Positions 4,724 through 45,420 of a DNA stretch of 58,980 bases are shown piece by piece. Position 1 is the first letter of the stretch. Each line of letters opens with the position of its first letter. Source of the stretch: Candidatus Bipolaricaulota bacterium (lineage in GTDB: Bacteria > Bipolaricaulota > Bipolaricaulia > UBA7950 > UBA9294). The notes below the pieces were generated by a model. The model saw only the letters and a program-made list of their open reading frames with translations, did no database searches and was not told the DNA's origin. The stretch is from NCBI GenBank assembly GCA_018817505.1, contig JAHITR010000063.1, forward strand, positions 1 through 58,980, in the 5' to 3' direction. The translations under genes were made by a program, and so were the position numbers.

Positions 4724-4758
4724 CGGAAGAAGCAGTGATGACGAGGATGGAGGAACGC

Positions 4759-6381: not shown

Positions 6382-6417
6382 CGGTGCAGTTGGTGAAAGG
6401 AGTCTGTAATAAACGAG

Positions 6418-7506: not shown

Positions 7507-7556
7507 CTTTCGGGGAACGTCCCGGACATGCTTGTCGTGCCATGGAACGGGTTGCC

Positions 7557-7810
7557 GACGAGTAGCTAGCCCCGGATGGCTGCCTGAGAAATGCGCTTGG
7601 CAACGGGCAGTGCTCTGGCACTGCCCGTTGCTTTGAAGAAATCGCCAAGCAAACTCCGATTTCTTCGACCGACAGGCTACGATCTGATGGCTGCCTGTAT
7701 GCTGCGCGCAACTCGCAGTAACTGCCTGCGAGTTCCAATGGAGAACGCCGAGCGAAGCCCGGCGTTCTCTGCAGCTCAATTGGCTATCCGCGGATAGCGG
7801 CTACTCATCT
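7557..7810. other. Highly structured intergenic element (multi-hairpin; candidate ncRNA or MITE/REP cluster)
   Basis: Five 8-14 bp inverted repeats enclosed by GAGTAGC(7560-7566)/GCTACTC(7800-7806). Confidence 0.6.
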
Positions 7811-7825
7811 TCGATGACTAGCATG

Positions 7826-7856
7826 GAGAAACCCCAGCGTGTGCTGGGGGTTTCTC
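7826..7856. terminator. Stem-loop, probable terminator downstream of ppdK (possibly bidirectional)
   Basis: GAGAAACCCCAGC-GTGT-GCTGGGGGTTTCTC just past the ppdK stop. Confidence 0.65.
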
Positions 7857-7875
7857 TGATGCAATATGTGAGGGA

Positions 7876-10530
7876 TTAGCCTCTAATGGCGGCTTGAGCT
7901 GCTGCCAAGCGGGCGACGGGCACTCGGTAGGGGCTGCAACTGACGTAGTTGAGGCCCACCTTGTGGCAGAAGGCGATGGAAGAGGGTTCTCCACCGTGTT
8001 CGCCACAGATGCCCAGCTTGATATTGGGTCGGGTCTTGCGTCCCAATTCACAGGCCATGGACACCAGCTTGCCTATGCCAGCCTGATCCAAGACGGCAAA
8101 TGGATCCTTATCGTAGATGCCCATTTCGACATAGTCCTTGAGGAACTTGCCAGCATCATCGCGCGAGAATCCGCATCCCATTTGGGTAAGATCGTTGGTT
8201 CCGAAGCTGAAGAATTCGGCCTCAGTCGCAATCTCATCTGCTGTGACCGCTGCGCGCGGCACTTCGATCATCGTTCCGACGAGGTAGGGGATGTCTGCCT
8301 TGCTCAATCCGTTGGCCGCTAGGACTTCCTCAGCGATCCGAACGGACAATTCCCGCTGAAGCGCCAATTCCTTCACGTGCCCAACGAGTGGAATCATGAT
8401 CTCGGGCTTCACGGACGTGCCCGTTTTGTACACATTGCAGGCAGCTTCCATGATGGCGCGGACCTGCATTTCGGAAATCTCTGGATAGATGATGCCGAGG
8501 CGGCAACCGCGGTGGCCGAGCATGGGGTTGAATTCGTGGAGAGCTTCAACCTTCTCACGGATAGCTTCTGCGGATACGCCCATGACCTTGGCAACGTTTG
8601 CCTGACCTTCGGCGTCATGAGGAAGGAATTCGTGCAAGGGGGGGTCAAGCAGTCGGATGGTGGCTGGCAGTCCCTTCAATGCTTTGAAGATGCCCTCAAA
8701 ATCGCCGCGTTGCATGGGAAGCAATTTGGCCAACGGCTCGCGTCGCCCGGCTTCATCCTTCGCCAAAATCATTTCGCGAACAGCGATAATCCGATCGCCT
8801 TCAAAGAACATATGCTCTGTGCGCGTGAGACCGATGCCCTCGGCACCAAATTTAACCGCGACGCTGGTATCGTGGGGCGTGTCAGCATTGGTGCGAACGC
8901 CGAGGGTTCGGAATTCATCTGCCCACCCAAGCAACGTGCCGAAATTACCCGACACTTCAGGCTCGATGGTCTTCATATCGCCCTTGTAGACAATGCCTGA
9001 CGAACCATTGAGGCTGATCGATTCGCCGACCTTGACGACCTGTCCACCGACTGTGAACTGACCCTTGGCATAGTCGATGTTGAGTTCGCCAGCGCCAGCG
9101 ACACAGCACTTACCCATGCCTCTGGCAACGACCGCAGCATGAGATGTCATTCCGCCGCGGGCTGTCAGAATGCCCTGCGCGGCTACCATTCCGCCGATAT
9201 CTTCGGGGCTGGTCTCGATGCGTACGAGAATGACCTTCTTGCCTGCCGCGGCGGCTGTCTCAGCAGCTTCGGCCGAAAACACGACAGTTCCTGAGGCTCC
9301 GCCTGGGCTGGCTGGCAAACCTTTGGCCAGGATGGGAGCCTTCGCTTCAGCTGCCGGATCGAATGTAGGATGAAGAAGCTGGTCGATTTGCCCCGGTGCG
9401 ACACGCAGCAGGGCCTCCTTCTTGTCAATCATGCCTTCTCCAACCATCTCAACTGCGGTCCGCACGGCTGCAGCTGCCGTCCGCTTACCGTTTCTCGTCT
9501 GCAGCATATAAAGAACACCGTCTTCGATGGTGAATTCGATGTCTTGCATGTCTTTGTAGTGGGACTCGAGTTTGGATCGAATCCCCATCAGTTCAGCGTA
9601 AATGGTGGGCATCTCGTCGTTCAACGTCGAAATGGGTTGTGGCGTACGAATTCCGGCAACGACGTCCTCGCCTTGCGCATTCATCAAATACTCGCCGTAG
9701 AATTCGTTTTGTCCCGTCGCAGGATCGCGAGTGAACGCAACGCCTGTTCCGCAGCCATTGCCCATATTTCCGAAAACCATTGCCTGGACATTGACGGCAG
9801 TTCCGAGCAGTCCCTTGATGTCATTAATCTGTCGATACTTGATCGCGCGAGGGTTGTTCCACGAGCGGAATACGGCTTCGATTGCTCCCCACAGCTGTTC
9901 TGTAGGATCTTGCGGGAACGGGCGACCGGCTCGCTTCTCGATAACGGCTTTGAACCGCGCGACCAGTTCCTTGAGGGCTTCGGCTGAGAGATCGGTGTCG
10001 AGCTTGACGCCCTTCTCTGACTTCACGGCGTCAAGAATCTCTTCAAACGGGTCATGATCGCTCTCAGTTTCTGGTTTGAGATCCATGACAACGTCGCCAT
10101 ACATCTGCAGCAGGCGGCGGTAGGAGTCATAGGCGAATCGCTCATTGCCTGACTTCTTGGCGAGTCCGACTACCGTTTCGTCTGTCAGCCCGAGGTTGAG
10201 GATCGTATCCATCATTCCCGGCATGGACACAAACGCGCCCGATCGAACGGAAACGAGAAGCGGATTCTCCACGCTGCCAAATGCCTTCCCAGTTGCGGCT
10301 TCGAGTTTCTTAAGATTCTTTGCGACTTCCTCGCGTAGGCCTTGAGGATAGGTGCTGCCATGATCTGAGTAGTAGCCGCAGACCTCAGTGGTGATGGTGA
10401 AGCCAGGAGGAACGGGGATTCCCAGCTCAGACATCTCCGCAAGATTGGCCCCCTTGCCACCCAGCAGCTGCTTCATCGTTGCATTTCCGTCAGTTTGATC
10501 CTTGCTGAAGAAGAAAACGTTTTTTCCCAC
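7876..10530 (-). CDS. ppdK: Pyruvate, phosphate dikinase
   Basis: [24 protein letters not shown] (phospho-His), [17 protein letters not shown]; GTG start with AAGGAGG. Confidence 0.97.
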
Positions 10531-30595: not shown

Positions 30596-30867
30596 CGTTC
30601 ATCCTCCCGGAGCTTGCGAAACAGGCCCAAAACACCAACGACAGCTGCGAACAGAACCGTCGCTTCGCCCAACGTGTCAAAACCACGGTAGTCAAACACC
30701 ACGGCGGTTACGGCGTTGTTCACAGCGACTTCTGGCTGTGCATTCTGGATGTAGTAGTCATCCATGACCGCCATCTGAGGCTCACCAAATGGTCGCATGT
30801 CGGCTACTCCGAGAAGAAGGAATGCGCCGACAAACAAGAACGCGACGAAGAGAATGGCTTTTCTCAT
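30592..30867 (-). CDS. mbhE: MbhE (MrpA C-terminal-like) subunit
   Basis: NAVTAVVFDYRGFDTLGEATVLF. Confidence 0.9.
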   Translation of the reverse strand: MRKAILFVAFLFVGAFLLLGVADMRPFGEPQMAVMDDYYIQNAQPEVAVNNAVTAVVFDYRGFDTLGEATVLFAAVVGVLGLFRKLREDER

Positions 30868-31115
30868 TCTTCCTCCTTTCGAGCAGTACGGCGGATGGCA
30901 ATCACATAGATGGCCGTTGTGAGTGCGGCGCCAATAGCGGCTTCGGCAATGGCCACATCGGGTGCTTGCAGCATATAAAACTCAAGTGAAACCAATAGGC
31001 TTGCTGCAGCAAGAGCTAGAACCGATGAGAGCAGATCCTTGAACCAAACTGCCAGAGCAGCTCCGATGACGATGAGCACGAGGACGACGACATGAAGGAT
31101 GCTTTGTACAATCAT
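30864..31115 (-). CDS. mbhD: MbhD (DUF4040) subunit
   Basis: LQAPDVAIAEAAIGA; ATG overlaps the mbhC stop. Confidence 0.88.
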   Translation of the reverse strand: MIVQSILHVVVLVLIVIGAALAVWFKDLLSSVLALAAASLLVSLEFYMLQAPDVAIAEAAIGAALTTAIYVIAIRRTARKEEE

Positions 31116-31447
31116 GATCGATCCTCCAGTTTGTCTACGACAGCACCCTTCGGCTTGACTCCACTGCGATACGCCGCGCGGGCGATGGCGTGAGATCCTG
31201 TGGGGTTGGTTACCAACAGCGCGATCAGGGCGATAATGACGTGAATAGCCAACGTATTGTACTGGGCGCCGCCACGGGCAAATCCGTACACAATGACTCC
31301 CAAGGCAGTGAACAGTGAGCCGAACGTTGTGCACTTGGTCGCTCCGTGAAGCCTCGTGTAGACGTCGGGGAAGCGAACCAGGGCAATGGCGCCCAAGCCG
31401 TTGAACAGAACCCCGATCCCAAGTAGGACATATAGGAGTATGCTCAA
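31112..31447 (-). CDS. mbhC: MrpG/MnhG-like subunit
   Basis: RFPDVYTRLHGATK, NPTGSHAIARAAY. Confidence 0.92.
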   Translation of the reverse strand: MSILLYVLLGIGVLFNGLGAIALVRFPDVYTRLHGATKCTTFGSLFTALGVIVYGFARGGAQYNTLAIHVIIALIALLVTNPTGSHAIARAAYRSGVKPKGAVVDKLEDRS

Positions 31448-31713
31448 TTCAATCCCCCTTCTAGGTAGCGAGCGATATACAGTGTTCCAACGAATGACAA
31501 CAGTGCGTAGATGATGGCCACATCAATGAACACGACCTGATCAAAGGCCGCACCCAGGACGATCATCGACGCAACAACCAGCGTATTGAGTGTGTCAAGT
31601 CCGACGACGCGGTCGCCGACTGTCGGCCCCAGCCCGATTCGTAACAGACTAAACATCACGAAGAACGCGAAGCAGGCCGCGACGATGAAGAACACCAGGG
31701 GTTCAATGATCAT
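31444..31713 (-). CDS. mbhB: MrpF/MnhF-like subunit
   Basis: GPTVGDRVVGLD, DVAIIYALLSF, ARYLEG. Confidence 0.92.
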   Translation of the reverse strand: MIIEPLVFFIVAACFAFFVMFSLLRIGLGPTVGDRVVGLDTLNTLVVASMIVLGAAFDQVVFIDVAIIYALLSFVGTLYIARYLEGGLN

Positions 31714-32240
31714 TCCGCGATCCTCCTTGCCCAGTCAACGAACGATCCGCACACCGCTTCCGCGGACGGATCCGTGTCTCTCACGTTGATCCAATGCACG
31801 AATAGATCTCCACTCTCCTCATCCACATCGACGGTCAGCGTTCCCGGAGTCAGCGTAATCGAGTTGGCCAACAAGGTGGTTCCGAAATCAGTGCTCAGCC
31901 CGGGGCTGAGACGTACGATTCCAGGACGGATCTTGCCAGTGATGACCCGATAGGCAACATCGAGATTGGCTTTGGCCATCGCCCACAGGAACGGCCCAAT
32001 CAGATAGACAAGAAACAACAGCCAACGAAGAGGATTCAGCATTCGCAGCGAACTCTTTCGGCCTTCTTTCTTGCGATTGAATGCAACGCGCCCAGCGATA
32101 GCTCCGACGATGAGGGAAAGGACTGCGCCCGAAATCCATTCTTCGAGGCTCCATGCAACGATCGTTCCGCTGCCAAATGTCAGCAGAAGATAGAAGAAGA
32201 AAGCTCCGATGGCAGTGACAAAGAATGCAAGCATTCTCAC
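31710..32240 (-). CDS. mbhA: MrpE/MnhE-like subunit
   Basis: ANLDVAYRV, LANSITLTPGTLTVD, LFVHWI. Confidence 0.92.
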   Translation of the reverse strand: MRMLAFFVTAIGAFFFYLLLTFGSGTIVAWSLEEWISGAVLSLIVGAIAGRVAFNRKKEGRKSSLRMLNPLRWLLFLVYLIGPFLWAMAKANLDVAYRVITGKIRPGIVRLSPGLSTDFGTTLLANSITLTPGTLTVDVDEESGDLFVHWINVRDTDPSAEAVCGSFVDWARRIAE

Positions 32241-32383: not shown

Positions 32384-35300
32384 CTACTCAACCTGAATAG
32401 GAATGCTCAGGGTGTCTGATGCCCCGGAGTTGTCTGTCACAGTGAGTGAGACGGTGGTCGTGCCAGATGCGGGGAAAATGTGCTCAGCGAACGCCGTTTC
32501 AGCATCGATCGTTCCATCGTGATTGAAATCCCAAGCATAGGCAACGATTTCGCCATCGAAGTCCCAGGACAGCGTCCCATTGAACAGGACCAATTCTCCG
32601 GCAGACGGGCGACTGGGCATGTAGGAGAAGTCAGCGACTGGAGGCTGGAACGAAGACGGCGGAGATGGCGGCGCGGATGATGCGACATTGACGAACACCG
32701 CTTGAGTGTAGGCATCTGTATTTCCTGAGTCGTCGGTAACTGTCAAGGTAACATTGAATGTTCCTGCAGTCGGGAAGACGGTTTGAGCAAAGCCATCCGT
32801 AGAATCAACGATGCCATCATCATTAAAATCCCAGGCATAGGCGACGATATCTCCATCGATGTCAGATGACAGGAGACCGTTAAACAGCACCTGCGACCCT
32901 GCTGCAGGTACGGTCGGTGAGTATTCAAAGTCCGAGAGCGGAGGCAGTGAGGGCTCCGACTGCGTCGGCGATGTATTTGCCGCGATTGGTATCTGTCGCG
33001 TTAACGAATCAGTGCCTCCTGAGTCATCCGTGACTGTGAGAGTGACACGAGCGTCGCCAATGATTGCGAACGCGTATTCGGAAATGGCTGCCAACGAGTC
33101 CACCACTCCATCTTGATTAAAGTCCCAAGCGTAGACTGAAATCTGACCGTCTGAATCTGTAGATAGTGTCCCGTTGAACACAACGACGCTTCCCGATTGC
33201 GGCTCAGACGGTGAGTAGTCGAAGTCAGCGATCGGGGGGAGTAGGGTGATTGGCGCTGTCGTTGTTTCAGGGGCGCCCGCTCCGACAGTCACTTGCAAGG
33301 TGAGCGTGTCCGTGGCACCGGAGTTGTCAGTGACTGTGAGTGAGACATCATAAACCCCATCTTCAATGAAACGGTAGTCGACGATGGCTGCCGAGGAATC
33401 GGTTTGACCGTCAGCGTTGAAATCCCAAGCAAATGCCACGATTTGGCCGCCAGCATCTGTAGACAGGGTCGCGTTGAACAGGACAACGGCACCGGCCTCT
33501 GGTTTGGTAGGCAAGTAGGCAAACGCAGCGACAGGTGGGGTTCCGCTGGTCGGTGTCGGGGCTGGCGAAATGACCTCAACGGTCAGTGTGATGCTATCGG
33601 AATTGCCATCGTCATCGGTCACCGTCAATGTCACTTCATGGAGCCCAGCCGTTGCGAACGCATACTCTGCAAAGGGTGCAGTTGAGTCCGTTATCCCATC
33701 TGCATTGAAGTCCCACGCAAACGTCTCGATCAACCCGTCCAGGTCCAGAGAAGGCGTGCCGTTGAACCTGATGATTTCTCCAGGAGACGGAGCCGTTGGC
33801 GAAATCTGGAAACTGGCGATCGGCGGCTGAGCCGCAATCGGAGCGTCCGCTGGGGGCTCGACAGGTGTTTCATCTGCAGTGTTTGCTGGCGTGTCCATGA
33901 TGACGGGGGTCCGCGCGGAGTCGGTGATGACCACGGCGTAGGTTACGGTATCGGAATTGCCGCCATTGTCCGTGACGGTCAGAGAGATGTCGTAAGTGCC
34001 TGCCATCAAGAAGACCTTGGACGTAATCGCTTCATGGGAATCCGAGACGCCATCTCCATCAAGATCCCAAGCATAGGCCGACAAGACACCATCAAAATCC
34101 GACGAGGAGGTGCCATTGAATTGGACGATCTCGCCCGTCTGTGGCTGTGCAGGCACATAGGTGAAGTCAGCCACTGGGGGCTGGAACGAAGCGCTCGAAG
34201 GAGCCGCGGAACCTTCGCCTACGGTAACCGGATAGATGACTGTGTCTTCGTTTCCCGTATCGTCAAGGACTGTCAATGCGATATCAAACGTACCCGCCGA
34301 CTGAAACGCATGAACAACCACGGGTTCCGTCGAATCGACAACGCCATCGGCATTGAAGTCCCATGCGAAGGCGACGATGGTTCCGTCGAAGTCGAATGAG
34401 TAGGTTCCGTCGAACGTGACAGGAACACCTGCGATCACTGTTTCGGGCTCGTAGAAGAAGTCGGCCGTGGGCGGCTGGAACGTGATCACGACCTCGCGTT
34501 CTCGTATGTAGCCACCGAATGAGATCGGCAGCGCGGCCTGCGCTCCAACGACCAACTCAACCTGCTGTTGAGTGGTGAATACGAATCGTTCGGGGAGCGA
34601 GGTCTCATCGACGGATAGCGTATAGGTTCCGGGAAGAATATCGGCGATGGTGAAACGGCCAGCTAGATCGGTGAATGCATCGGAGAATCCGCCGTCAGTC
34701 GTCGACTCCAAAACGAGGCGTACTTGCGCCAATCCGCCCTCGTCTCCGGCTCTTGAGCCGTCCTTGTCCACATCCTCAAACACGTCGCCGGTGATCACGA
34801 CGACCGGGAGAAGGGGAATGTCCACCCAAAGCGTCTCTCCAGCGATAACCGTGACCGTCACAGGTTCGCCAACAGCCGCATTGACGGGGAGTTGATCGGG
34901 AGCAAGCGTGTAGTCGCCGGGATAAACGGGGGTGAACCGGAAGTATCCGTCGGCATTGGTGGAGACTTGCGTACGCCCTGCTCCCACCACGATGGTTCCC
35001 GCAGGCTCGTCATTCAGCCCGTATAAACCATCGCCATCACGATCAATGAATGCGCGGCCTTCGATGCGCCCTTTGGTCACCAGGAATGGAAGAGGAATGT
35101 TCACGTTGGCATTGAAGGAGATTCCCCATCCGAAGCTAATATCGTTGGCATCATGGCGATCCCACGAAATCGAGCCGTCAAACACGACATCCAAGTCATC
35201 CGTGAAATGAATGAAGAAGGATGCAGAGAGATCGAAATCATCTCGTGTGTTCCCAAATGTAATCGATGCTTCGTGAAGCGCAGTTTCAGGCTGGAAACGG

Positions 35301-37153
35301 ATGGATAGATCGGAAGATGAAGACAATGGTGTGTCCGCGATGACATCGAAGCTCTGGGACTCCGTCAGCTGGAAATAGAGGTAGAACGCCTCGATGGCCA
35401 AGCCAGCGCCTTGTGAATAGGTGGTCGTTCGTACGTGTGAATTCAGCACCAAATCCTGTTGCTCCAGCACCTTCCCTGTCAGGGAATAGGGGAACACGCC
35501 CGCTGTCTCTGTGAGGCTGACGGCCACCAGCGTGTCGACGTCGTTCTTGACGGACAAGTCGGCATATCGGTCCCACGAGAAATCGAGGGTCGAAGCCAAT
35601 GTGGGCCCGTTCTCCAGGGGTGTGGCCGTGAGATTGAACCCCAAGTCATCTTGAATGCGCGTCGGAAGAAGCGGATCACGATTGACGTTGTCCCACTCAT
35701 GGGACAGAGAGCTACTCAGAGATATGGCTGTCAGCCGAAGCCGCTGGGATACCTCGATTCCGGCTGAATCGGCTCGTTGTCCGGGAAAGAATGTGCCGAC
35801 AGAGTAGGCGCTTCCGCTGAAGAAATATCCTGATGAATCAATGGTCGTGTTGAAGAAAAGTGCGCGACTCGTAAGCGGGCCGTCCAGGCCGAGGCTACCT
35901 TCGATGTCCAGTGTCCAATCATCAAGTGGCGCTGCATGGGCAGTGGCCGTCCACAGGGATTTCGAAACCGATACCGCATCGCGAATCCCCAAGTAGCCGA
36001 TGCCTATGTTGGCCACATCTGGTCCAAGAGCAAGATACCCGGCAAATCGGGTTTCATTGTTGCTCCCGCCGCCGATCACAGACAGATCGACATACTCCGC
36101 ATCGATCTTCAACGATCCGCCCGTGCACGATAGGCGAACGAGATCTGTGAGAGACTGCGAAACACTGCCAATGGAGAACGTGCTGGGGGCTAGACGATAA
36201 AGCATCGAGAATGAGCTGATCCTGGCCTTCGTTGGCCCAAAGGGATCGAGAAGACTGAAAAAGGACGAGAAATACCCGCCAAGGATTTGTCCAGAAGTAG
36301 AGAATGTCAGCTGGCTGTCGAACGCATTGGTCATTACGTTCTTGTCAATCGAGATTCGAATTCGTGCAGGCAGCTCTTCCATGACGGTTCCCCCCACTGC
36401 ATCGGGAGCTGGGGGAAGAACGGACGTAAAGACAACGGCATCGGAGTTGACGCCTTCATAGATTGCAGATTCCGCCACGACAGTTAGCACATCTCGTCCA
36501 GGTTCCGTACCCATGGGGATAGTGATCTGAACGGTAAACGGCAGCCGTTCTTGAGGAGCCAGGTTTGCTGAGTCATGTGACAGTGCAATGGACAGTCCGC
36601 GAGATGAACTGGCCGTGAGAACCAACGAATCCTGAACATTACCTCGATTGATGAGAACGAATTCGTAAGTCATTGAATGTCCGGGGGCAATACTTGCTCC
36701 CGTAGGGGCAACGAGTTCAATTTGCGTCATGGGCGTAACCAGCACGGTCCCCATGGCTGTCCCATAGTTCAACGCGTCGGATTGTGCCGTGGCCGTGAAT
36801 GCCAAGACGTATTCGCCTGCGACGGCCCCAGCCGGGATGGTGGCGGTGACGAACAGCGTGCCTTCCTCATTTGGCTGCAGTGCAATGGAACTGGGAGCAC
36901 CGAGAAGCCCCCAGCCAGCAGGAGCGACAAACGATAGCGAGAAGGTCTCAGGATTCGGGGAATCGTTGATGAGTCCAAAAACATGCGTGACGAATGATCC
37001 TGGCGCTCCATCTTTCGGAGTGGAAAGGAGGCTGACCTCAACGGACATTCCGCCAAGGCTCACAAGGATCACCAGCAATAGGGCGATCAGCGTTCCCTTC
37101 TGTAACCTCTGGTTGCACGCCAACATGACGATTAACCGTATGTGATGTGGCAC
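32384..37153 (-). CDS. Large secreted/outer-membrane protein: 2x NEW3-like Ig + predicted beta-barrel + 2x SdrD-B-like + 7x PKD (start may be 37126)
   Basis: Signal peptide; PAGW/NRGN NEW3 motifs; ~430 aa of amphipathic beta strands; GRAFIDRDGDG and GDVFEDVDKDG; seven PP.A.F...WD(F/L)..DG repeats. Confidence 0.8.
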   Translation of the reverse strand: MPHHIRLIVMLACNQRLQKGTLIALLLVILVSLGGMSVEVSLLSTPKDGAPGSFVTHVFGLINDSPNPETFSLSFVAPAGWGLLGAPSSIALQPNEEGTLFVTATIPAGAVAGEYVLAFTATAQSDALNYGTAMGTVLVTPMTQIELVAPTGASIAPGHSMTYEFVLINRGNVQDSLVLTASSSRGLSIALSHDSANLAPQERLPFTVQITIPMGTEPGRDVLTVVAESAIYEGVNSDAVVFTSVLPPAPDAVGGTVMEELPARIRISIDKNVMTNAFDSQLTFSTSGQILGGYFSSFFSLLDPFGPTKARISSFSMLYRLAPSTFSIGSVSQSLTDLVRLSCTGGSLKIDAEYVDLSVIGGGSNNETRFAGYLALGPDVANIGIGYLGIRDAVSVSKSLWTATAHAAPLDDWTLDIEGSLGLDGPLTSRALFFNTTIDSSGYFFSGSAYSVGTFFPGQRADSAGIEVSQRLRLTAISLSSSLSHEWDNVNRDPLLPTRIQDDLGFNLTATPLENGPTLASTLDFSWDRYADLSVKNDVDTLVAVSLTETAGVFPYSLTGKVLEQQDLVLNSHVRTTTYSQGAGLAIEAFYLYFQLTESQSFDVIADTPLSSSSDLSIRFQPETALHEASITFGNTRDDFDLSASFFIHFTDDLDVVFDGSISWDRHDANDISFGWGISFNANVNIPLPFLVTKGRIEGRAFIDRDGDGLYGLNDEPAGTIVVGAGRTQVSTNADGYFRFTPVYPGDYTLAPDQLPVNAAVGEPVTVTVIAGETLWVDIPLLPVVVITGDVFEDVDKDGSRAGDEGGLAQVRLVLESTTDGGFSDAFTDLAGRFTIADILPGTYTLSVDETSLPERFVFTTQQQVELVVGAQAALPISFGGYIREREVVITFQPPTADFFYEPETVIAGVPVTFDGTYSFDFDGTIVAFAWDFNADGVVDSTEPVVVHAFQSAGTFDIALTVLDDTGNEDTVIYPVTVGEGSAAPSSASFQPPVADFTYVPAQPQTGEIVQFNGTSSSDFDGVLSAYAWDLDGDGVSDSHEAITSKVFLMAGTYDISLTVTDNGGNSDTVTYAVVITDSARTPVIMDTPANTADETPVEPPADAPIAAQPPIASFQISPTAPSPGEIIRFNGTPSLDLDGLIETFAWDFNADGITDSTAPFAEYAFATAGLHEVTLTVTDDDGNSDSITLTVEVISPAPTPTSGTPPVAAFAYLPTKPEAGAVVLFNATLSTDAGGQIVAFAWDFNADGQTDSSAAIVDYRFIEDGVYDVSLTVTDNSGATDTLTLQVTVGAGAPETTTAPITLLPPIADFDYSPSEPQSGSVVVFNGTLSTDSDGQISVYAWDFNQDGVVDSLAAISEYAFAIIGDARVTLTVTDDSGGTDSLTRQIPIAANTSPTQSEPSLPPLSDFEYSPTVPAAGSQVLFNGLLSSDIDGDIVAYAWDFNDDGIVDSTDGFAQTVFPTAGTFNVTLTVTDDSGNTDAYTQAVFVNVASSAPPSPPSSFQPPVADFSYMPSRPSAGELVLFNGTLSWDFDGEIVAYAWDFNHDGTIDAETAFAEHIFPASGTTTVSLTVTDNSGASDTLSIPIQVE
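32387..34480 (-). repeat. Seven tandem PKD-domain coding repeats with Pro/Ser/Thr linkers
   Basis: Repeat units start QPPTADF, QPPVADF, QPPIASF, TPPVAAF, LPPIADF, LPPLSDF, QPPVADF; each has WDFNxDG/WDLDGDG and LTV(T/L)D. Confidence 0.85.
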
Positions 37154-37728: not shown

Positions 37729-40700
37729 TCATTCACCTGCTGGCTCGATCAGCAGAGTTCTTCCGTCCGAACGTCCGAATACTTCAGGGAAGTAGAACTC
37801 CTGGGCCAGCGTGGGCAATACGCCGAATTCTCCTGGGACCACGGCACGAAGGCTATATTGGAACGTGTAGGTCCCTGATGGGAGATAGTCGGCAAACAAC
37901 ACGGCCTTCTCATCGCGGAATTCAGAACGGGAGTACCAACGCCACCACCACCAATAGAACCAGTTGGAGCCACTCGATGAGTCTCGGAACAATCCCGGTT
38001 CGGTCGCAGCGCGACTTGTGGTTGCCAGTGAAGGATCGATGGCTTCGCAGCCGGCTGGGAATGGATCCTCGACGACGACGTAATAGAGGTCATTCGGAGC
38101 AATGATCGTGAGACGAACTTGGATTTCCTCGCCGACAGAGATCGTGTCGATTTCAGGGCAGGGCTCGCCGATCGCACAGGATGCGGCGACATACTGTCTC
38201 TGAACGATAATGCCCCGCTGCAGCGCACCGACCTCCTCCACAGGGATGTAAGACGTAAGGTGGGCTGTGTAGTACAGCCGTCCCGTGCCCTCACCTCGTG
38301 CAACAGTCAATGTGTTGCTCGTCCCCGGCAAGAGATCATGAGCGCCAACCGAGAATTCAATCGGCTCAGTCTGCGCTGTGCCATCAGTCTGTCCCTCGAA
38401 TAGCTGAACGCCGTTGATGGCTGCCTCGAAACTGTAGGTCGGATTCAACTCGCCAGTCGCGACCATCCAATCGGTTAGTGAGATCAGAGCCCATGCGGTT
38501 TCTTGCGTCGTCTCCCAAATTCCGCCCGATCGTGCGACCATCAGCCAGCGAACGACATTGGGCAGCATCGGCTGATCGGGGTTCAGTCGAACCAAGGCAT
38601 CGAGGATGATGGCTGTCGATCGCGTGTCCGTGTTCATCGCCCACCAATCGTAAGTCGACTCCTCCCAGTGGATTCCCGTTGCGGAAATGATGGCCTGCGA
38701 ATAGAGATCCGAGAGAAGGGTGTCCACTGAAGAAGAACTGCCGTTGGAGAGCTGCAGAGTCAACGCCAGCCATGCGCGTGCATAATGGCTGAGCTTGCTT
38801 CGTACAGTGAACAGCTCACTGGCAGCATTGAGTGCATCAGTGTGCCGGTTTCCTTCAGAAAGCACATAGGCAATCCAGGCTTGGCGGTTGGCAATCACCG
38901 TTGATGTGAGGTTCTTGGGCGCGACCAACGAATTGGCGAGGAAGTCGAGGCCATTCTTGAGCGCATCTCGTTGAATCCCAAAATCAGCTTTCTGCGCCTG
39001 CAGCAAGGCATAAACAGCGTATGCAGACAGATAAGGATTCGATCTGTCGCCGTCCCACCATCCCCAGCCGCCATCGGCGTTCTGCCTTGCATAGAGCTTG
39101 TCAATTCCCTCAGTGACCAGGCTGGGAAGCTTGTCTGCCAACGCCTGGTTCTCGATGCCCAGTTCAACCAGGGCACGATAGGTGAGGACGTTGGGGAGGA
39201 ATCGACTGATCACCTGCTCGGTGCACTCGTACTCGAAGTGCTCGAGATAGTCGAGTCCCTGCTGCATAGCTGCAGCAAGAGACGTTTCCAAGCGAATCAA
39301 CAACTCGGAACGGTCCATATCAAGGCCAGGCAACAAGCCGATGATCTCCGTCCGGTTCCCAAAGCCATCCAGTTGACCGGCTGTCCCCACGATCTCAGGG
39401 GACGTGTACCTATAGACAAGCAACGTTCCATCTGGGCCTGTTGTCAATCGCGGACGTGCGGCATCGGACAAGTCCCCAGATTCGACGCTGAACGCGATGT
39501 CCACTGCATCGACATCTTGGACTGTTCCCCACCATACGACAGCCATCTCCCCTCGAGCGGGCACGGTCACTGTTTGGACGGCCCCTGTTTCAAGCGACAA
39601 ACCGGTTTGCGCAAGGGTGACTTCGGCGCTCAGGTCCTCATCCGTTTGGTTGGACACGTTGGCCAGAAGCTGCAATCGGTCACCGACCACGAAGAAACGC
39701 GGTGTGACGGGGCGGATGAGCAGCGGCTTGGTTACCAGCAGTTCTGAAGTGGATTCACCAACGTCCGTCTGGGTCGAGATCCCGACAGCACGGGCAACCC
39801 AGGTCGTCAGATTGTCGGGCAATTGGATGATCAGTCGAGCATAGCCCAGACTGTCCGTGGTCACAGAGCCGTCCCAAAATGCAGTATCCTCGAAATCTTC
39901 GCGAAGCGTGATGCCTTCGGGTAGTTGCGCTGCCGCACTTCGCATGACGGGATCGTGATCGGCGGCTCCAGCTTCTTCTGCCAGGGCAGTGGGCGCGAAC
40001 ACGGCGCCAACGCTCGTGTCATCTTGCTGTGCCTTGACGGCATCGAGCGTTTCGAGTTCTTCAAGCTGCTCAATGACCAAGCGATTGATGGAGAGAGTTA
40101 ATCCACTCGATGTGGACACACCTAGGCCGCGTCTTCCATAGAACGCATCAAGAATGGCGTTGGGCGTCCGCGGGCGAAGCGACAATACGGCAGCATCCAC
40201 CAAATCGAACGCAAGAGAACTGGGTAGCGGAAGGCCGTCGGCATCTGTGACCCATAGGTCATAGGCGATCTCAGTGCCGGGTAGCGATTGCTCGCTGGAT
40301 GGCACCATTTCGATGTGCAATGACTTGGGATCTCTTGACACAGTCAACGCTGCGTACCCGATCTTGGTTTCGGCAGCAGCGGTTGCACCATCGGCTGCCA
40401 ACGTGGCCGCCTCCAATCCCTGGAACAGCACAACACTGACGTAAATGTTGGGGATGTGCTCCAGCGTGATGGGGACCTCAATGACGGTACTGTTGGATTC
40501 CAGCAATCGGACATCACGGTAAAGGATGCCCCCTCGCTCAATGGTTAACAGTGCCCAGTGCGGCCCGGAATAGGGACTGGGCACAAGGATCTGCGCTGTC
40601 TCTCCAACTTCGTACTCGGTCTTGTCAGGAATCAATGTGATGCGATCATCATTGCTGCGTTGCCAAGAGACGCTTTCTGGGCCGCTTGCCCACAGAAACA

Positions 40701-43700
40701 GACTGGTGCGCGTTTCGTTCCCAGCGGCATCTGTTCCGATGGCAAGCACTTTGTAGGTTCCGCCCTCGGGCGGGGAGAATGAGAAGACGCCGACACCCTT
40801 TTCATCCGTTCGTAGCGTACCCGTCTCGACTTCGGTGTCATAGGTCTTCCAAGTCCAACGGCCACCCCCGGCTGCGTCCTGTTCGAAGGTGTTTTCCCAT
40901 TCCCTGTGGATGACTTGATATGTAAGATCCTGTGAGCCGATCCGCTCGCCAGCCCAATCGACGGTCACGACATCGATCGCCGTGTCGTCACCAGCCCGGG
41001 CGATCGATCGAGCCGTTGCCAGTCCGGCGTAGAAGGATGCTGCATGGACGATGATCGTGGATCTTCCAGAAATGACTTGGCCATCAGCCCCTCGCGTCGT
41101 GGCCTCAATCGTCAATGTCTGACTCCCGGATTGGACGTCCTTGACGCCGAAGACAAGGTTCGCGGGAAATTCAATCAGGAGGTTGCCATCGACATCTGTC
41201 GTACCTGAACCTTCCAGAACAGGCACGGAAGGTGTGGACGGCATCCACCAGCAGCTCCAGCAATCCCAGGGATCGTCCCGGTCTGAGAACGTATATCGAC
41301 TGAGGTGAGAAGGCGAGAAGTTGTAGGCTTCGGAGTAAATGCTCCATTCGACAGATTGTTGAGATACGGGCGCACCGAAGAAGTACTCGACTTGCACGTT
41401 TGTTCGTACAGTATCTCCTGCAACGTGTTGATCCTCATCTGGGGTGACCACGACCTGAAATTCGGGAGCGCGATAGGCAGCAACATCGAATGTGTCGGTG
41501 TGGTAGGAACGAGTGGTTTCAATTTCGATGCGATAGGTGCCAATGGCTGCATCGGTTTCTAGCTCAAACTGACCAGAGAACGTGCCGAATGCGTCGACGG
41601 CAAGCCGCCCCTCATAGATCAATGACCAATCTGAGTCTCTGACCGTCACCCCGACGGATTCGTCGCTTGGCAACGAGTAGAGGACATCTTGCTCATCTCG
41701 AAGGACGCCGCGGAAAGATACCGTTTGTCCGGGTCTGTAAATGGGACGATCGGTGTCGAGGAAGAGTCGCTCTTCAGAGCTTCCACCAGAGGAATAGCCG
41801 AAATTCCAAATAGATATTCCCGTCGTCCATTGCGAATTTCCCAGCGAGAACGGGACTGCGCTTGCTACAGTGATCCCTCGCCAATCATAGGCATCCGTGC
41901 CCGCGAAGATGGCGATACCATTTCCGTCTGTGACTGTTGCTTCCAGGGCATCTCCATCTGAATCATACGTTCGTAGAATTAGGCCGGGAATCGGGTCTCC
42001 CGTCAATAGATCGCAGGCCCACACAAGGGTTTCGGTGTCCGATGTCTTCATCGTGAGATTCAGCGGGCTGGCGATGAGCAGATGCCGATGCTGCCAACGA
42101 TTCCAGCTGACTCCTTGTGCATTTATGTCGATGAGATAAATGCCGGGCTCGAGTGACGCGCTATCAGTTAGTAGGTCGATGGGGGCATAACTCACTTTGT
42201 TGAGTTCGCCTGACAGGGACACTGTCCACTTGCGTACGAGAGCGTTCTTGGAGGGGGTGTAGTTGTACCAATCGTTGGTGGCCTTGAAGTACTCATCTAG
42301 GGAGAGGCGTGACAGCGTGAGCGCCACTGAATCAGTATTTCGGTAGGCAATGAATAGCTTGGCGGGCTCATAGGCATTGAAGGTGCCTGTTTGACCAGGA
42401 ACATGCAGCCAGGCCGTTGGATCAAGAGCGGCGGTTTGGAACCTAATTGTCATGGTTTGGTTCGTATGATTCCCGTATGGATCGGCAATATTGGGACCGA
42501 TCCGTACTTCGTAGGTCTGGCTCGGTCCTGAGTCGAACCAAAGCGCATAGGAATTGTCCCAAGAGCGGAAATATCCTGAGACTGTTCCAGGTTCAGGCTT
42601 AGGAAGGATGGTAAGGTTATCTAGAACCGTGTCTGGATCGATAGGGGTATTGAAGGTGATCTCAAGCGACGTATAGGGATAGACATCAGATGCACCGTTC
42701 CTTGGACTCACGGAAATGATCCTTGGAAGAGGGACTGTCTCGAAGCGAGACATGATGGCGTTTTCCATGCCCAAGCCCCCACTAGCACCGGTGACGCCGG
42801 GTTCTAGGGTGATGACATAGGTTCGTGAAAAATCCAATGGATCCCGAGGAGTGAAGGTGACGACGGCCTCGTTGATCGAGAACTCTCCGGGAATCGCCTC
42901 AGAAAACAGGCTGCCGAACAGGCCAGTTGTTCGAAGAACGAATCGCTCCCTGACGCTTTCCAAGGAAACAGGCATGTTGAATGCGAGAACAATGGACGTA
43001 TCAATTGGGACGAGGTCGGCGCTGGTTCGCGGGGACACCCAGACGATGTCAGGTCTCAGCGTCGAGAATCGCCAAACCACGTCTTCTGCGAGCAATCCAC
43101 CGGTAGTGTCTGTGAGTCCGCGTGGCACTGTGACCGTGTATTCGGTGCCGCCTCTGAGGGGGACGGTCGGTGTGAACACGTACATGGACGTGTTCACCCA
43201 CTCTCCGACGCCTGACACTGCGGGCTCGATGATGAGCGGCTGGGGGAGGTTGCTCCGATTGGGATCCGTCAATGTAAGGAGAGGAATCACCGGCCGATTG
43301 AACATGACAAAAATATCGCTATCGACGGCGATCTCTTCGGAATGGTTGACTGGCAGAATCTGAGAAACGTTCAGGAAGCCGACGGTTCGGAATTGAAACG
43401 CAAAGCCCTCTTCAAGAGGTTCCTGCAATGAGGAGGCGGCTTGCTGGGACAACGAAACGGTGTAGACCGTATCACGGACCCATTCGGAATGGGCCACGAA
43501 TCGTAGTGTGCGCTCAGTTGGCCATTCAAAGGAACCCTCGATATCAGGAGTGATTCCCCAGGCCGCTTCAACAGACACCTGATCCATGGCACGGTCGAAG
43601 AGAATCTCCACGACACCGTCGACCAGGAGATCTTCGCCCCTTGTCGGCGAGTGCTGGAGGATGCTCGGGCCACCGAGTGCTCCGGCGGAAATCGCCATGA

Positions 43701-43764
43701 AGACAGAAAATACGAGAGCAATTCCGTACCAACGTCTAGTAGTGCCGCAATTGACTTGACTCAT
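37729..43764 (-). CDS. Bacterial alpha-2-macroglobulin family protein with N-terminal SbsA/Big_5 Ig-like domains
   Basis: TDRPIYRPGQTV, LPDNLTTW, thioester YECTEQ, QNADGGWGWW, WETTQE, FYFPEVFGRS. Confidence 0.93.
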   Translation of the reverse strand: MSQVNCGTTRRWYGIALVFSVFMAISAGALGGPSILQHSPTRGEDLLVDGVVEILFDRAMDQVSVEAAWGITPDIEGSFEWPTERTLRFVAHSEWVRDTVYTVSLSQQAASSLQEPLEEGFAFQFRTVGFLNVSQILPVNHSEEIAVDSDIFVMFNRPVIPLLTLTDPNRSNLPQPLIIEPAVSGVGEWVNTSMYVFTPTVPLRGGTEYTVTVPRGLTDTTGGLLAEDVVWRFSTLRPDIVWVSPRTSADLVPIDTSIVLAFNMPVSLESVRERFVLRTTGLFGSLFSEAIPGEFSINEAVVTFTPRDPLDFSRTYVITLEPGVTGASGGLGMENAIMSRFETVPLPRIISVSPRNGASDVYPYTSLEITFNTPIDPDTVLDNLTILPKPEPGTVSGYFRSWDNSYALWFDSGPSQTYEVRIGPNIADPYGNHTNQTMTIRFQTAALDPTAWLHVPGQTGTFNAYEPAKLFIAYRNTDSVALTLSRLSLDEYFKATNDWYNYTPSKNALVRKWTVSLSGELNKVSYAPIDLLTDSASLEPGIYLIDINAQGVSWNRWQHRHLLIASPLNLTMKTSDTETLVWACDLLTGDPIPGLILRTYDSDGDALEATVTDGNGIAIFAGTDAYDWRGITVASAVPFSLGNSQWTTGISIWNFGYSSGGSSEERLFLDTDRPIYRPGQTVSFRGVLRDEQDVLYSLPSDESVGVTVRDSDWSLIYEGRLAVDAFGTFSGQFELETDAAIGTYRIEIETTRSYHTDTFDVAAYRAPEFQVVVTPDEDQHVAGDTVRTNVQVEYFFGAPVSQQSVEWSIYSEAYNFSPSHLSRYTFSDRDDPWDCWSCWWMPSTPSVPVLEGSGTTDVDGNLLIEFPANLVFGVKDVQSGSQTLTIEATTRGADGQVISGRSTIIVHAASFYAGLATARSIARAGDDTAIDVVTVDWAGERIGSQDLTYQVIHREWENTFEQDAAGGGRWTWKTYDTEVETGTLRTDEKGVGVFSFSPPEGGTYKVLAIGTDAAGNETRTSLFLWASGPESVSWQRSNDDRITLIPDKTEYEVGETAQILVPSPYSGPHWALLTIERGGILYRDVRLLESNSTVIEVPITLEHIPNIYVSVVLFQGLEAATLAADGATAAAETKIGYAALTVSRDPKSLHIEMVPSSEQSLPGTEIAYDLWVTDADGLPLPSSLAFDLVDAAVLSLRPRTPNAILDAFYGRRGLGVSTSSGLTLSINRLVIEQLEELETLDAVKAQQDDTSVGAVFAPTALAEEAGAADHDPVMRSAAAQLPEGITLREDFEDTAFWDGSVTTDSLGYARLIIQLPDNLTTWVARAVGISTQTDVGESTSELLVTKPLLIRPVTPRFFVVGDRLQLLANVSNQTDEDLSAEVTLAQTGLSLETGAVQTVTVPARGEMAVVWWGTVQDVDAVDIAFSVESGDLSDAARPRLTTGPDGTLLVYRYTSPEIVGTAGQLDGFGNRTEIIGLLPGLDMDRSELLIRLETSLAAAMQQGLDYLEHFEYECTEQVISRFLPNVLTYRALVELGIENQALADKLPSLVTEGIDKLYARQNADGGWGWWDGDRSNPYLSAYAVYALLQAQKADFGIQRDALKNGLDFLANSLVAPKNLTSTVIANRQAWIAYVLSEGNRHTDALNAASELFTVRSKLSHYARAWLALTLQLSNGSSSSVDTLLSDLYSQAIISATGIHWEESTYDWWAMNTDTRSTAIILDALVRLNPDQPMLPNVVRWLMVARSGGIWETTQETAWALISLTDWMVATGELNPTYSFEAAINGVQLFEGQTDGTAQTEPIEFSVGAHDLLPGTSNTLTVARGEGTGRLYYTAHLTSYIPVEEVGALQRGIIVQRQYVAASCAIGEPCPEIDTISVGEEIQVRLTIIAPNDLYYVVVEDPFPAGCEAIDPSLATTSRAATEPGLFRDSSSGSNWFYWWWWRWYSRSEFRDEKAVLFADYLPSGTYTFQYSLRAVVPGEFGVLPTLAQEFYFPEVFGRSDGRTLLIEPAGE

Positions 43765-44136
43765 GATGATCCTCCCCAGAATCGAACCTCAAGCACATGT
43801 CCCACACTGATAGGTGGAACTGTCGGTAAATGCAAATCGAACGAGTCCCCCAATCAAACACCTGGACAAGCAGTGAGTTTCACCCAGTGGCTCACATCGT
43901 GCGAGAGGGATTCGTGAGCAAAATCAATTCTAGGGGGATTTTCGAGCGATCTGAAGGTGGCTCATGCGAGATGTCTAGACTGCGAAGAAAGGTGGAACAA
44001 TTAGTTCGTAGGTCATTGACAAGTGAACCGAGGTGAAACGGAGGCAGCGCCCTCAAACGGGGCAGCTTCCGACCACAAGATGGATTTAAAGATTGCGGTG
44101 GACGGTCCATCGCATGGTTTCAATTCCTCAGAGAAG

Positions 44137-44354
44137 GTATCTACTAAAGGCAAACCGATCGAAAGGTCGGGACGCAAAGCTACGGACCTTAAAGACCAGA
44201 GCTCATCGTCTGAGTTCTCATGCAAGGGCAAACCCGGGGTGACCCGGGGACGCAAAGCTACGGATCTTTCGAGCGCATTGCGCTCGCGAATGCGAAGCAT
44301 TCGATAGACAGCCGAGTTGCCGCAGCGTCTGATGGTGGCCGAGTCGCTAGATGC
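44137..44354 (+). ncRNA. c-di-GMP-I (GEMM) riboswitch, outer aptamer whose P3 loop encloses a second aptamer
   Basis: GGCAAA-CCGATC-GAAA-GGTCGG-GACGCAAAGCTACGGACC ... ATGGTGGCCGAGTCGC; P1 GTATCTA(44137-43)/TAGATGC(44348-54). Confidence 0.8.
44221..44325 (+). ncRNA. c-di-GMP-I (GEMM) riboswitch, inner aptamer
   Basis: GGGCAAA-CCCGGG-GTGA-CCCGGG-GACGCAAAGCTACGGATCT ... AGACAGCCGAGTTGCCG. Confidence 0.85.
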
Positions 44355-44383
44355 ACTCAACAACCACTTCAGGAGGTGCTTTC

Positions 44384-44857
44384 ATGAGGACGCTTAAAGG
44401 TTTCGGTATTGTGATGTTGGTGGCAGTTTTGGTCGTAGGGATTGCGGTCATGGTTTCTGCGAAAAACGGCACAGAAGCAGCGGTTTCAGTTAATGCTTCG
44501 TTCTCGATTCCGTCTTGGATCTCCTTGTCGGCTGTTGGGAATGGCAACGTCAGCTTCTCAGATATTGCTGGTCCCGGATCCTATGCCGCTTCCAATGGAA
44601 CGCGGCTTCAGGTTCTCAGCACAACGAGCTGGACGATCTCCGGCGAGATTCTTTGGTCTGAATCGAAAATGCCTGAAGGCGCAAGTCAGCAGACGATCGA
44701 CAATGCGCTTGAGCGCTCCTATGACAAGACGTCGGGTAGCTGGGGAATCCACACGGTGAACGTTTCGTATCAGTTCAACGTTGAAGTCGACGACATGGCC
44801 AATATGCCTGAAGGCGACTACAGCCTGGTCATCCAGTACACGGCAACCACGGACTAG
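44384..44857 (+). CDS. Small secreted beta-rich protein, fimbrial/pilin-subunit-like
   Basis: SD AGGAGG; Sec signal; N-terminal alternating strand AAVSVNASFSIP; C-terminal GDYSLVIQYTAT. Confidence 0.65.
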   Translation: MRTLKGFGIVMLVAVLVVGIAVMVSAKNGTEAAVSVNASFSIPSWISLSAVGNGNVSFSDIAGPGSYAASNGTRLQVLSTTSWTISGEILWSESKMPEGASQQTIDNALERSYDKTSGSWGIHTVNVSYQFNVEVDDMANMPEGDYSLVIQYTATTD

Positions 44858-44913: not shown

Positions 44914-45096
44914 GCCCATTATCCTCGGTTCATGCCATAACGGCTCCAGGAACTCTGGAGTCCTTTTTGTTTGCCTTCTTGGCAGTCGATTCTTCGTTTG
45001 CATGCGTTCTCTGTTCCCCGTGTGCTCGCGGGAATTTCAGTAGGCCTGTTGTGAAGGCATCGAGTCTTCACGAAAAAAACACATCTGACGGGTTCC

Positions 45097-45420
45097 ATGG
45101 CTTCGACCATGAATACACTCAGGCCTGAACCGAAGAAATCTACTCTAGGACAGTTTCGGCCTGAAAAACCGATGCGCGGTCCATGGATCGGCTATCTGGC
45201 GATGAGCTGCGTGATTGGATCGTTCATCCTGAACAGCCTATTGGGCTGGGTCGCCGGAGTGCTTGTCGCAGGATGCGCTGTGATTTTGGGAAAGATGGGA
45301 TTGGACTCGAAGGGGCGAGGCTTGTCGGTGATTGCCATGCTTCTTGGCGTGGTTCTCATTGGTGTTTTGCTGACGGTTCTTCTCATCGGACAGGAGAACA
45401 TCGGAATGAGTCCAACGTAG
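45097..45420 (+). CDS. Small membrane protein (DUF4190-like)
   Basis: Three hydrophobic segments; AVILGKMGL..KGRGLSVIAMLLG. Confidence 0.6.
   Translation: MASTMNTLRPEPKKSTLGQFRPEKPMRGPWIGYLAMSCVIGSFILNSLLGWVAGVLVAGCAVILGKMGLDSKGRGLSVIAMLLGVVLIGVLLTVLLIGQENIGMSPT

Follow-up and report, generated by a model that had tools for sequence, protein, structure and literature searches.

The 58,980-nucleotide window analysed here (positions 1 to 58,980, forward strand, of contig JAHITR010000063.1 in the Candidatus Bipolaricaulota assembly GCA_018817505.1) contains at 44384-44857 (+ strand, stop codon included) the gene for a predicted secreted protein of 157 residues, P0001, preceded by a tandem of riboswitch aptamers for cyclic di-GMP (c-di-GMP). 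We consider it somewhat better than an even bet, with a probability of about 55%, that P0001 is the riboswitch-gated major subunit of a chaperone-assisted fibre built by donor-strand exchange (DSE), whose chaperone-like and tip-like parts are encoded on a different contig of the same genome, C121. An initial annotation of the window had suggested a surface fibre of an atypical chaperone-usher type. The idea of a fibre has gained in substance, as the gene lies behind riboswitches, its product is predicted to be secreted and immunoglobulin (Ig)-like with a free conserved strand, and a chaperone-like partner and an adhesin-like paralogue are encoded in the same genome; the chaperone-usher part has not, as neither an usher nor a PapD_N domain was found in that genome (2.66 Mb in 241 contigs, 92% complete).

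A conserved N-terminal strand in a small, putative Ig-like subunit

Translation of the open reading frame (ORF) yields 157 codons uninterrupted by a stop and a product without a single cysteine. Its N-terminus, MRTLK followed by an 18-residue hydrophobic core and then VSA-K, is read as a signal peptide of residues 1-26 (44384-44461, + strand), which falls into the low-confidence part of the structural model and is presumably cleaved after residue 26. The ribosome-binding site AGGAGG is located at 44371-44376, followed 7 nucleotides downstream by the ATG, and both this site and the sequence ATGAGGA are kept in all 10 aligned leaders of related loci. An alternative in-frame ATG at 44351 would lengthen the protein by 11 residues; the start at 44384 was preferred because the homologues begin M-R-[TM]-L-K.

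Conservation along the chain was derived from 98 of 101 homologues, with lengths of 140-180 residues, three having been dropped for their length. The best-conserved 15-residue stretch of mature P0001 includes residues 34-48 (VSVNASFSIPSWISL; 44483-44527, + strand), a donor-strand-like N-terminal segment. Windows starting at residues 34 and 35 rank first, and the mean frequency of the top residue reaches 0.93 at the strand, compared with 0.72 over residues 49-157 and 0.42 over residues 27-33. A38, S44, W45 and L48 do not vary at all, F40 is found in 97 of the 98 sequences, and in the strand itself V34, V36, A38, F40 and I42 alternate with Ser, Asn, Ser and Ser before Pro43 follows.

The AlphaFold2 model of the P0001 monomer, calculated from a 33-sequence alignment, has a mean predicted local distance difference test score (pLDDT) of 78.9 and contains seven strands and two short helices. 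Residues 1-44 are unstructured and of low confidence – residues 34-44 in particular have no secondary structure and a low pLDDT – and values of 82-93 are reached over residues 41-157. Residues 45-157 (44516-44854, + strand) are predicted to form an Ig-like beta-sandwich that ends in the invariant C-terminal strand QYTATTD. Residues 34-44 are conserved yet unfolded, and the best-conserved piece of P0001 is thus the one that the monomer model leaves unplaced. In the long paralogues described below, which align to P0001 only from residue 40-46 onward, the N-terminal strand is absent. The secreted, beta-rich and cysteine-free character that the initial annotation had ascribed to P0001 is in line with the translation and the model, and the two structural hallmarks it had named, an alternating N-terminal strand and a C-terminal G-x-Y strand, are both present and conserved among the homologues, the latter as G144-D-Y-S-L-V-I-Q-Y-T153.

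The 101 homologues were retrieved from a collection of 5.8 billion proteins. They share 44-93% identity with P0001, nearly all are 137-178 residues long, none contains a Pfam domain, and the sole named source among them is a Candidatus Bipolaricaulota metagenome-assembled genome. An exhaustive HMMER scan of 1.84 billion representatives returned just 50 proteins at E ≤0.001, and judged by sequence P0001 belongs to a small orphan family that so far comes from Bipolaricaulota-type genomes. The yield of family searches was small: P0001 matched no Pfam family at E up to 0.1, 33 family members gave chance-level Pfam matches alone (e.g. HSL_N, E 0.013), NCBIfam returned just LipL45 for P0001 (12.6 bits against a cut-off of 350), and the subunit profile found no PDB chain at E up to 10. 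Among 20 distant relatives scanned, P0123 matched DUF4402 at E 0.045, a sub-threshold lead only, and in the ESM Atlas the named clusters closest to the subunit were SCPU (39% of members) and WxL (37% of members), both at 0.91 and likewise a lead only. The metagenomic protein P0134, of 288 residues, carries two tandem subunit domains with a donor-strand-like …VTARVYFDLTETLSLEI… in the linker, and may be a naturally fused, self-complementing form.

Structure searches with the P0001 model gave weak matches. Foldseek found nothing in the PDB at E ≤0.001, with a best E of 3.9e-3. By VIA the best match was the PapD-like/ASH domain of CEP192 (Z 7.9), further matches including TLP-1a/b (Z 7.4/7.3, 127 residues aligned), CsuA/B (7.2), the PapG pilin domain (7.0), FimG (6.6) and TasA (8aur, 6.0). 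Donor-strand fibre subunits overall spanned Z 5.5-7.4, and CfaB and Pyrobaculum bundling pili were also among the weak fold matches. Of the subunits with which the initial annotation had invited comparison, CsuA/B, CfaB and TasA are thus weakly matched, none of them decisively.

A chaperone-like partner and a long paralogue

Paralogues of P0001 are represented in the genome by one clear case, which answers a check proposed in the initial annotation: a long form of 257 residues on contig C121 (locus L002, 603-1376), which over its C-terminal 110 residues shares 30% identity with residues 46-157 of P0001 (E 2e-13). It is built from a variable N-terminal domain, to which the ESM Atlas assigned no named family (a lead only), and a C-terminal domain of the P0001 type. 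A similar architecture is seen in some of the 50 relatives, which are 258-427 residues long and carry the P0001-type domain at the extreme C-terminus, their N-terminal part being a conserved domain of ~130 residues that belongs to no known family, or Big_9/cadherin, or DUF7507 modules. The gene for a secreted protein of 385 residues (L002, 1404-2561) begins 27 nucleotides after the long form. At the related locus L014 the order is a riboswitch with a small paralogue (2523-3125, − strand), a long form (3456-4301), a 392-residue protein (4339-5517), a tandem riboswitch (5770-5943) and the small subunit (5992-6456).

Co-occurrence of these genes was surveyed in 184 genomes of the phylum, which, being related, are non-independent samples. 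The subunit profile matches in 33 of the genomes, and full-length orthologues of the 385-residue protein (profile positions ~3-386, E <1e-75) are found in 39. As many as 17 of the 19 genomes with a strong small-subunit match also carry a full-length orthologue of the ~385-residue protein; of the two exceptions, G144 has a contig-edge fragment of the partner and G119 is only 67% complete. The long form adjoins the ~385-residue gene in 16 genomes, and the small subunit lies within ~2.5 kb of this pair in six (G128, G132, G137, G146, G161 and G177). The association of the three genes, subunit, long form and ~385-residue partner, is well supported by these counts.

The model of the 385-residue partner has a pLDDT of 90.6, and its best Foldseek matches are the Enterococcus faecium WxLIP chains 9i25_C (E 2.7e-10), which was solved bound to a long WxL protein (PDB entry 9i25), and 9i1y (3.5e-10), with CfaA, FimC, EcpB, CupB2 and YadV ranking next. 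VIA gave the same picture, with Z 16.8 for 9i25_C (232 of 251 residues aligned) and 16.4 for 9i1y, 3.7 Z above the next group. That group comprises the pilus chaperones CfaA (13.1, 196 of 211 residues), YadV (12.8), Caf1M (12.3), FimC (12.3), CupB2 (12.2), SfaE (12.0), SafB (11.9) and CsuC (11.7), all in near whole-chain alignments. In sequence the relationship is fainter: PF06030 (WxLIP_PGBD, formerly DUF916) is matched by 9 of 33 members of the partner family at E ≤0.01 (best 7.2e-7), the partner itself, at 17.2 bits, falls short of the cut-off of 27.3 (E 0.23 when the genome was scanned), PF11797 was not among the Pfam families matched by the 33 members, and the family profile hit PDB sequences at chance level only (best E 0.015, designed Ig proteins). 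At the C-terminus, the partner as well as its family consensus has a beta-strand (...VVGVRGFRIR) and no membrane helix, the only helix of at least four residues in the partner being the N-terminal signal segment, residues 2-17. A WxLIP-type two-domain chaperone fold of the partner is thus well supported by modelling.

Tandem c-di-GMP riboswitches in the leader

Two c-di-GMP-I aptamers precede the gene on the + strand, the first at 44139-44216 (RF01051, 41.4 bits against a gathering score of 35), the second, a GGC variant, at 44218-44325 (RF03167, 60.1 bits against 59; RF01051, 61.3 bits). Both exceed their gathering scores and were also found by a whole-genome Rfam scan. Among the 10 related loci with upstream sequence – three others have less than 80 nucleotides upstream – at least one aptamer lies directly 5' of the small-subunit gene in every case and two in nine, the position of aptamer 2 being filled in all 10 and that of the first aptamer in nine. 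The double riboswitch reported in the initial annotation is upheld by these scores and by its conservation, as is the strong Shine-Dalgarno sequence behind it, and the gene is followed by a terminator-like hairpin and then CTTTTTGTTT (44942-44971, + strand, by sequence scan).

The expression platform, 44326-44383 on the + strand with the AGGAGG inside it, is conserved as a near-invariant block that separates aptamer 2 from the ATG in the alignment of 10 leaders. Some 40 nucleotides of it, 44326-44365, hold a repeated GCCGAG and lie between aptamer 2 and the ribosome-binding site. An invariant UCCUC is found at 44125-44129, just 5' of aptamer 1, and to judge from the alignment this motif and the GCCGAG block probably belong to an expression platform in which both aptamers are enclosed. 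Since no U-tract terminator was found in the leader at 44326-44383 and a near-invariant block precedes the ribosome-binding site, we infer that the riboswitches control P0001 at the level of translation. Folding of the leader yielded no convincing on or off model of the switch, and a consensus scan of the + strand upstream of the leader revealed no sigma-70-like promoter.

Some relatives possess two to three small-subunit paralogues with further aptamers alongside. At L014 an extra aptamer is located in front of the second small-subunit paralogue, and at L011 one (764-859, + strand) is found just downstream of the small-subunit gene. Neither the long-form/chaperone locus L002 nor the sequence preceding this gene pair in L014 yielded an aptamer.

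Transcription of the region was assessed in RNA libraries. Twenty runs from 16 studies (sediment, groundwater) contain part of the stretch, and 14 of them contain at least half of its words. In all four runs examined, the P0001 gene is covered by contigs at ≥99% identity, and one 785-nucleotide contig extends unbroken over 44046-44830, through leader and ORF. As RNA libraries can contain DNA, these contigs are consistent with transcription and no proof of it. In the same four runs 43800-44003 and 44922-45300 remained uncovered, which, with contigs, says nothing on the ends of the transcript.

In the whole-genome scan, 11 c-di-GMP-I matches were obtained, 10 of them above the cut-off. The nine outside the P0001 leader are located at C209:23019-23104, C122:3310-3393, C90:4491-4575, C222:9531-9620, C222:10054-10169, C218:55615-55707, C217:127-201, C113:1611-1693 and C187:17610-17742. 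The C218 aptamer precedes an adhesin-like protein of 2839 residues with cadherin-like repeats (C218:46953-55472), that on C122 a secreted Ala/Asp-rich protein of 285 residues, that on C209 a permease, and those on C113 and C187 beta-rich proteins of 418 and 481 residues that could be outer-membrane proteins. The genome sequence thus points to a sizeable surface regulon under riboswitch-based c-di-GMP control.

Proposed assembly of the fibre

We suggest that P0001 would be exported and, after removal of the signal peptide, would present a free amphipathic strand, V34-x-V36-x-A38-x-F40-x-I42, in front of its compact Ig-like domain. The soluble secreted ~385-residue protein, which resembles both WxLIP and pilus chaperones and is encoded on C121 beside the long paralogue, would bind and hold the subunit. 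The N-terminal strand of each incoming subunit would then complete the fold of the previous one, a mode of polymerisation suggested by conservation, by domain architecture and by analogy, and the long paralogue, strandless and with its variable N-terminal domain, would take its place at the tip as an adhesin or nucleator. Because the chaperone and tip genes are free of riboswitches at L002 and L014 and the subunit mRNA carries two aptamers, fibre elongation would be licensed by the c-di-GMP level. The most far-reaching form of this proposal, a fibre that combines a soluble WxLIP-type chaperone with a new minimal pilin domain and whose growth c-di-GMP licenses directly, by way of two riboswitches confined to the mRNA of the major subunit, is put forward tentatively, the odds being rather against so complete a picture.

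Should the DSE fibre exist, the WxLIP-type chaperone pathway, reported as restricted to Bacillota, would extend to a deep-branching uncultured phylum and would stand structurally between the Gram-positive WxL pili and the Gram-negative chaperone-usher pili. Chaperone-guided DSE would reach beyond Proteobacteria-type usher systems and Bacillota WxL pili, and a first survey would have underestimated the age or the mobility of the WxLIP-type chaperone. With about 113 residues and a strand of 15, P0001 would represent a compact type of pilin domain; as a domain without detectable sequence relatives, it could open a new way of finding such fibres in uncultured lineages. The control logic would be simple, with a double c-di-GMP switch on the major subunit and chaperone and tip genes that are riboswitch-free where scanned, and the question would be raised how the fibre gets out of a cell equipped with a BamA-like protein and devoid of an usher. 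In the library searched we found no literature linking donor-strand fibres or c-di-GMP riboswitches to Bipolaricaulota, the terms "Bipolaricaulota" and "c-di-GMP" being co-mentioned there only in a general biofilm essay.

Evidence against a fibre and alternative explanations

A number of observations weigh against the assignment of P0001 as a DSE subunit. All of its fold matches lie below Z 8, where beta-sandwiches of any kind usually score, and the self-complete PapD-like/MSP domains match the model as well as pilins do, so that the fold alone decides nothing. The WxL chain of 9i25 was not among the 50 best matches listed in any of three structure searches with P0001. The sequence of P0001 matches none of the CS1, Csu, SCPU, DUF4402, Peptidase_M73, TasA or WxL families, and the resemblance to CS1-, Csu- and spore-coat-U-type subunits noted in the initial annotation is not borne out at this level. 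WxL (PF13731) was found neither in P0001 (E ≤0.1) nor in 33 family and 20 distant members (E ≤1), it is without a match in the genome at E up to 10, and it exceeds the cut-off in none of the 184 genomes of the phylum. Moreover, P0001 and the chaperone-like gene lie on separate contigs of their genome, C136 and C121, and in 18 genomes the full-length chaperone orthologue is unaccompanied by a subunit match at E 1e-5.

The C-terminal half of the chaperone profile (positions ~204-386, two Ig-like domains), which occurs in 145 of the 184 genomes and is therefore a common module in the phylum, adds to these reservations. The matching proteins have ~270-390 residues and are often present in several copies per genome, and by sequence WxLIP-like modules seem to be a common, unannotated building block of surface proteins in this phylum. 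A second, distant pair in the P0001 genome (L021, C218:55400-67414; pair at 997-9661) consists of a 363-residue protein with a C-terminal dockerin, to which the second half of the chaperone profile is similar (E 1.9e-24), followed by a 166-residue protein with a weak match to the subunit hidden Markov model (E 1.7e-3) and a match to Mycobact_memb (MmpS) at 24.7 bits. This pair is flanked by a PAS-GGDEF-EAL protein, a NosD/beta-helix protein, a Cache-HAMP-GGDEF protein and a subtilase.

The cell envelope poses a further difficulty for a fibre. The genome encodes a 772-residue BamA-like Omp85 protein (66.3 bits), by which the host is probably diderm. A soluble chaperone fits a periplasm. With a BamA-like protein present and no usher found in the genome, a fibre would have no evident way across the outer membrane.

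Among the alternatives, the one that fares best sees in P0001 a surface or periplasmic protein that does not polymerise, its Ig-like domain docking one-to-one to the envelope or to the ~385-residue partner in the manner of the earlier, static platform model of WxL and WxLIP. The short form would then act as an adaptor or decoy and the long forms as carriers on which a payload is displayed. Clustering, co-occurrence and the WxLIP-like partner fit this docking model too, the fold matches of P0001 fail to separate pilins from self-complete Ig domains, and a static platform was the published view in 2023 (PMC10599100). One-to-one docking does not, however, call for a free N-terminal strand such as that of P0001, which tops the conservation profile, has no fold in the monomer model and is lacking in the long forms, and the platform model itself has since been revised to a DSE pilus on the basis of electron cryo-microscopy (cryo-EM) and pull-down data (bioRxiv 10.64898/2026.10.17.759780). 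The RNA contigs for the gene in many small environmental metatranscriptomes would also fit an abundant structural product, although this is weak evidence. We regard docking as unlikely.

Less probable again is a chaperone-independent matrix fibre similar to TasA/CalY or to the archaeal bundling pili. TasA (8aur), TLP-1a/b and the Pyrobaculum bundling pili are among the weak fold matches of P0001, the subunit gene is solitary in this genome, and the distant relative P0139 matches Peptidase_M73 at E 0.0065, a lead that at 16.8 bits stays below the cut-off of 22.5. Against this, neither P0001 nor any of the 33 family members scanned matches Peptidase_M73 (PF12389) at E up to 1, a mature protein of ~131 residues compares with an aligned TasA chain of 233 residues at a Z of just 6.0, and the adjacency of the long form and the chaperone-like gene, together with the whole-chain match of the partner to WxLIP and chaperone-usher chaperones, argues for a chaperone role.

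Finally, an atypical chaperone-usher system with the secreted 1589-residue protein at 32384-37153 (− strand) as its usher, an idea favoured only by its proximity of about 7 kb, is hardly credible in the light of the seven PKD domains of this protein, its CarboxypepD_reg, SdrD_B-like and weak choice-of-anchor T matches and the lack of any usher match to it, of the genome-wide searches, in which Usher (PF00577) scored at best 10.6 bits (E 0.29, cut-off 27.1) on another contig and PapD_N (PF00345) had no match at E up to 1, and of the 2011-residue alpha-2-macroglobulin gene that intervenes. The usher-based version of the initial annotation is contradicted by this domain content, which marks the supposed usher as a PKD-repeat surface protein and probably a large surface adhesin, and the PapD-like chaperone it had envisaged is not to be found by sequence.

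Genomic surroundings

Upstream of P0001 and divergently transcribed from the riboswitch leader lies the gene for a bacterial alpha-2-macroglobulin of 2011 residues (37729-43764, − strand) with MG2, bait region, A2M, TED and bMG10 domains plus four Big_5 domains. The gene for the PKD protein has as neighbours subunit genes of an Mrp/Mnh-type Na+/H+ antiporter (MNHE, MbhD; 30864-32240, − strand). Between the terminator-like hairpin behind P0001 and a glutamyl-tRNA synthetase-like gene, an ORF of 107 residues (45097-45420, + strand) encodes two to three hydrophobic helices without a Pfam match. In six to eight related loci, the small-subunit gene shows conserved synteny with pieces of the alpha-2-macroglobulin gene and with the downstream gltX block.

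Comparison with known systems

The proposed Bipolaricaulota system resembles both the WxL/Elr and the chaperone-usher pili, but lacks a Pfam WxL domain, a membrane anchor on the chaperone, a sortase, an usher and the PapD family. With the chaperone-usher pili, the archaic Csu and CupE as well as the class 5 CFA/I and CS17, it shares a partner that aligns over near-whole chaperones (Z 11.7-13.1), weak fold matches of P0001 to CsuA/B, the PapG pilin domain, FimG and CfaB, and a fixed C-terminal strand at the very end of the protein. Unlike in those systems, neither usher nor PapD_N was found in the genome, and P0001 has no sequence similarity to their pilins.

TasA and TLP-1 subunits polymerise by donating an N-terminal strand. 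P0001 is comparable to TasA of Bacillus subtilis (8aur) and the environmental TLP-1a/b fibrils (9ikj, 9ikk) in being a predicted secreted Ig-like subunit with an N-terminal strand. It differs from them in its size, with ~131 mature residues against 233-237, and in having no Peptidase_M73 signature. To our knowledge, no dedicated fold-completing chaperone has been described for TasA or TLP-1 fibres. The donor strand of TLP-1 was likewise predicted to be disordered in a monomer model (CryoSeek paper, PMC11494351).

Control by c-di-GMP riboswitches is on record for adhesins and pilins, for example of Clostridioides difficile and Bacillus thuringiensis (PMC6200980, PMC7423583). As in these cases, a GEMM-I aptamer stands in the leader of a gene for a probable surface structure; unlike there, the aptamers are two in tandem, and their gating would be limited to the major subunit of a putative fibre that depends on a chaperone, in an uncultured phylum.

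The name "WxLIP" was given to the DUF916-DUF3324 proteins in a 2023 paper, which also predicted the insertion of a strand from a hairpin into the WxL domain (PMC10599100). A preprint of 17 October 2026 (bioRxiv 10.64898/2026.10.17.759780) reports from cryo-EM at 3.5 Å that the small WxL protein ElrD forms a pilus by DSE, with the WxLIP protein ElrE as the chaperone that primes the polymerisation of this pilin. According to the same source, Foldseek on ElrE finds CsuC, CfaA, Caf1M and EcpB, tip adhesins of the Elr type consist of a variable payload and a C-terminal WxL domain, the donor strands follow the consensus [S/T]-x-[G/A]-x-[V/I]-x-F, 96.7% of WxL chaperones possess a C-terminal membrane helix, and the system is described there as confined to Bacillota.

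Against this background, the present genes differ from the Elr system in several respects. P0001 is not a Pfam WxL protein, its domain of ~113 residues giving no match to the 214-position model; the partner has no C-terminal membrane helix, is about 130 residues longer, and stays below the PF06030 cut-off with PF11797 not listed. Sortase (PF04203) had no match in the genome at E up to 1, LPxTG proteins not having been searched for, the host is probably diderm and outside Bacillota, and the major subunit is placed under a tandem c-di-GMP riboswitch. What is shared with the pilus of Enterococcus faecalis (ElrD pilin, ElrE DUF916/DUF3324 chaperone, ElrA tip adhesin) is an usher-free, three-part gene set in which a small subunit of one domain plus a strand is accompanied by a larger protein that bears the same domain at its C-terminus, behind a variable payload, and by a partner of the WxLIP fold (Z 16.8 to 9i25_C), as well as a strand that alternates small and hydrophobic residues and ends in a phenylalanine, F40 in P0001 and in 97 of 98 homologues. 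By this analogy, the Bipolaricaulota gene set would repeat the logic of the Elr system part for part, with a different and much smaller subunit domain.

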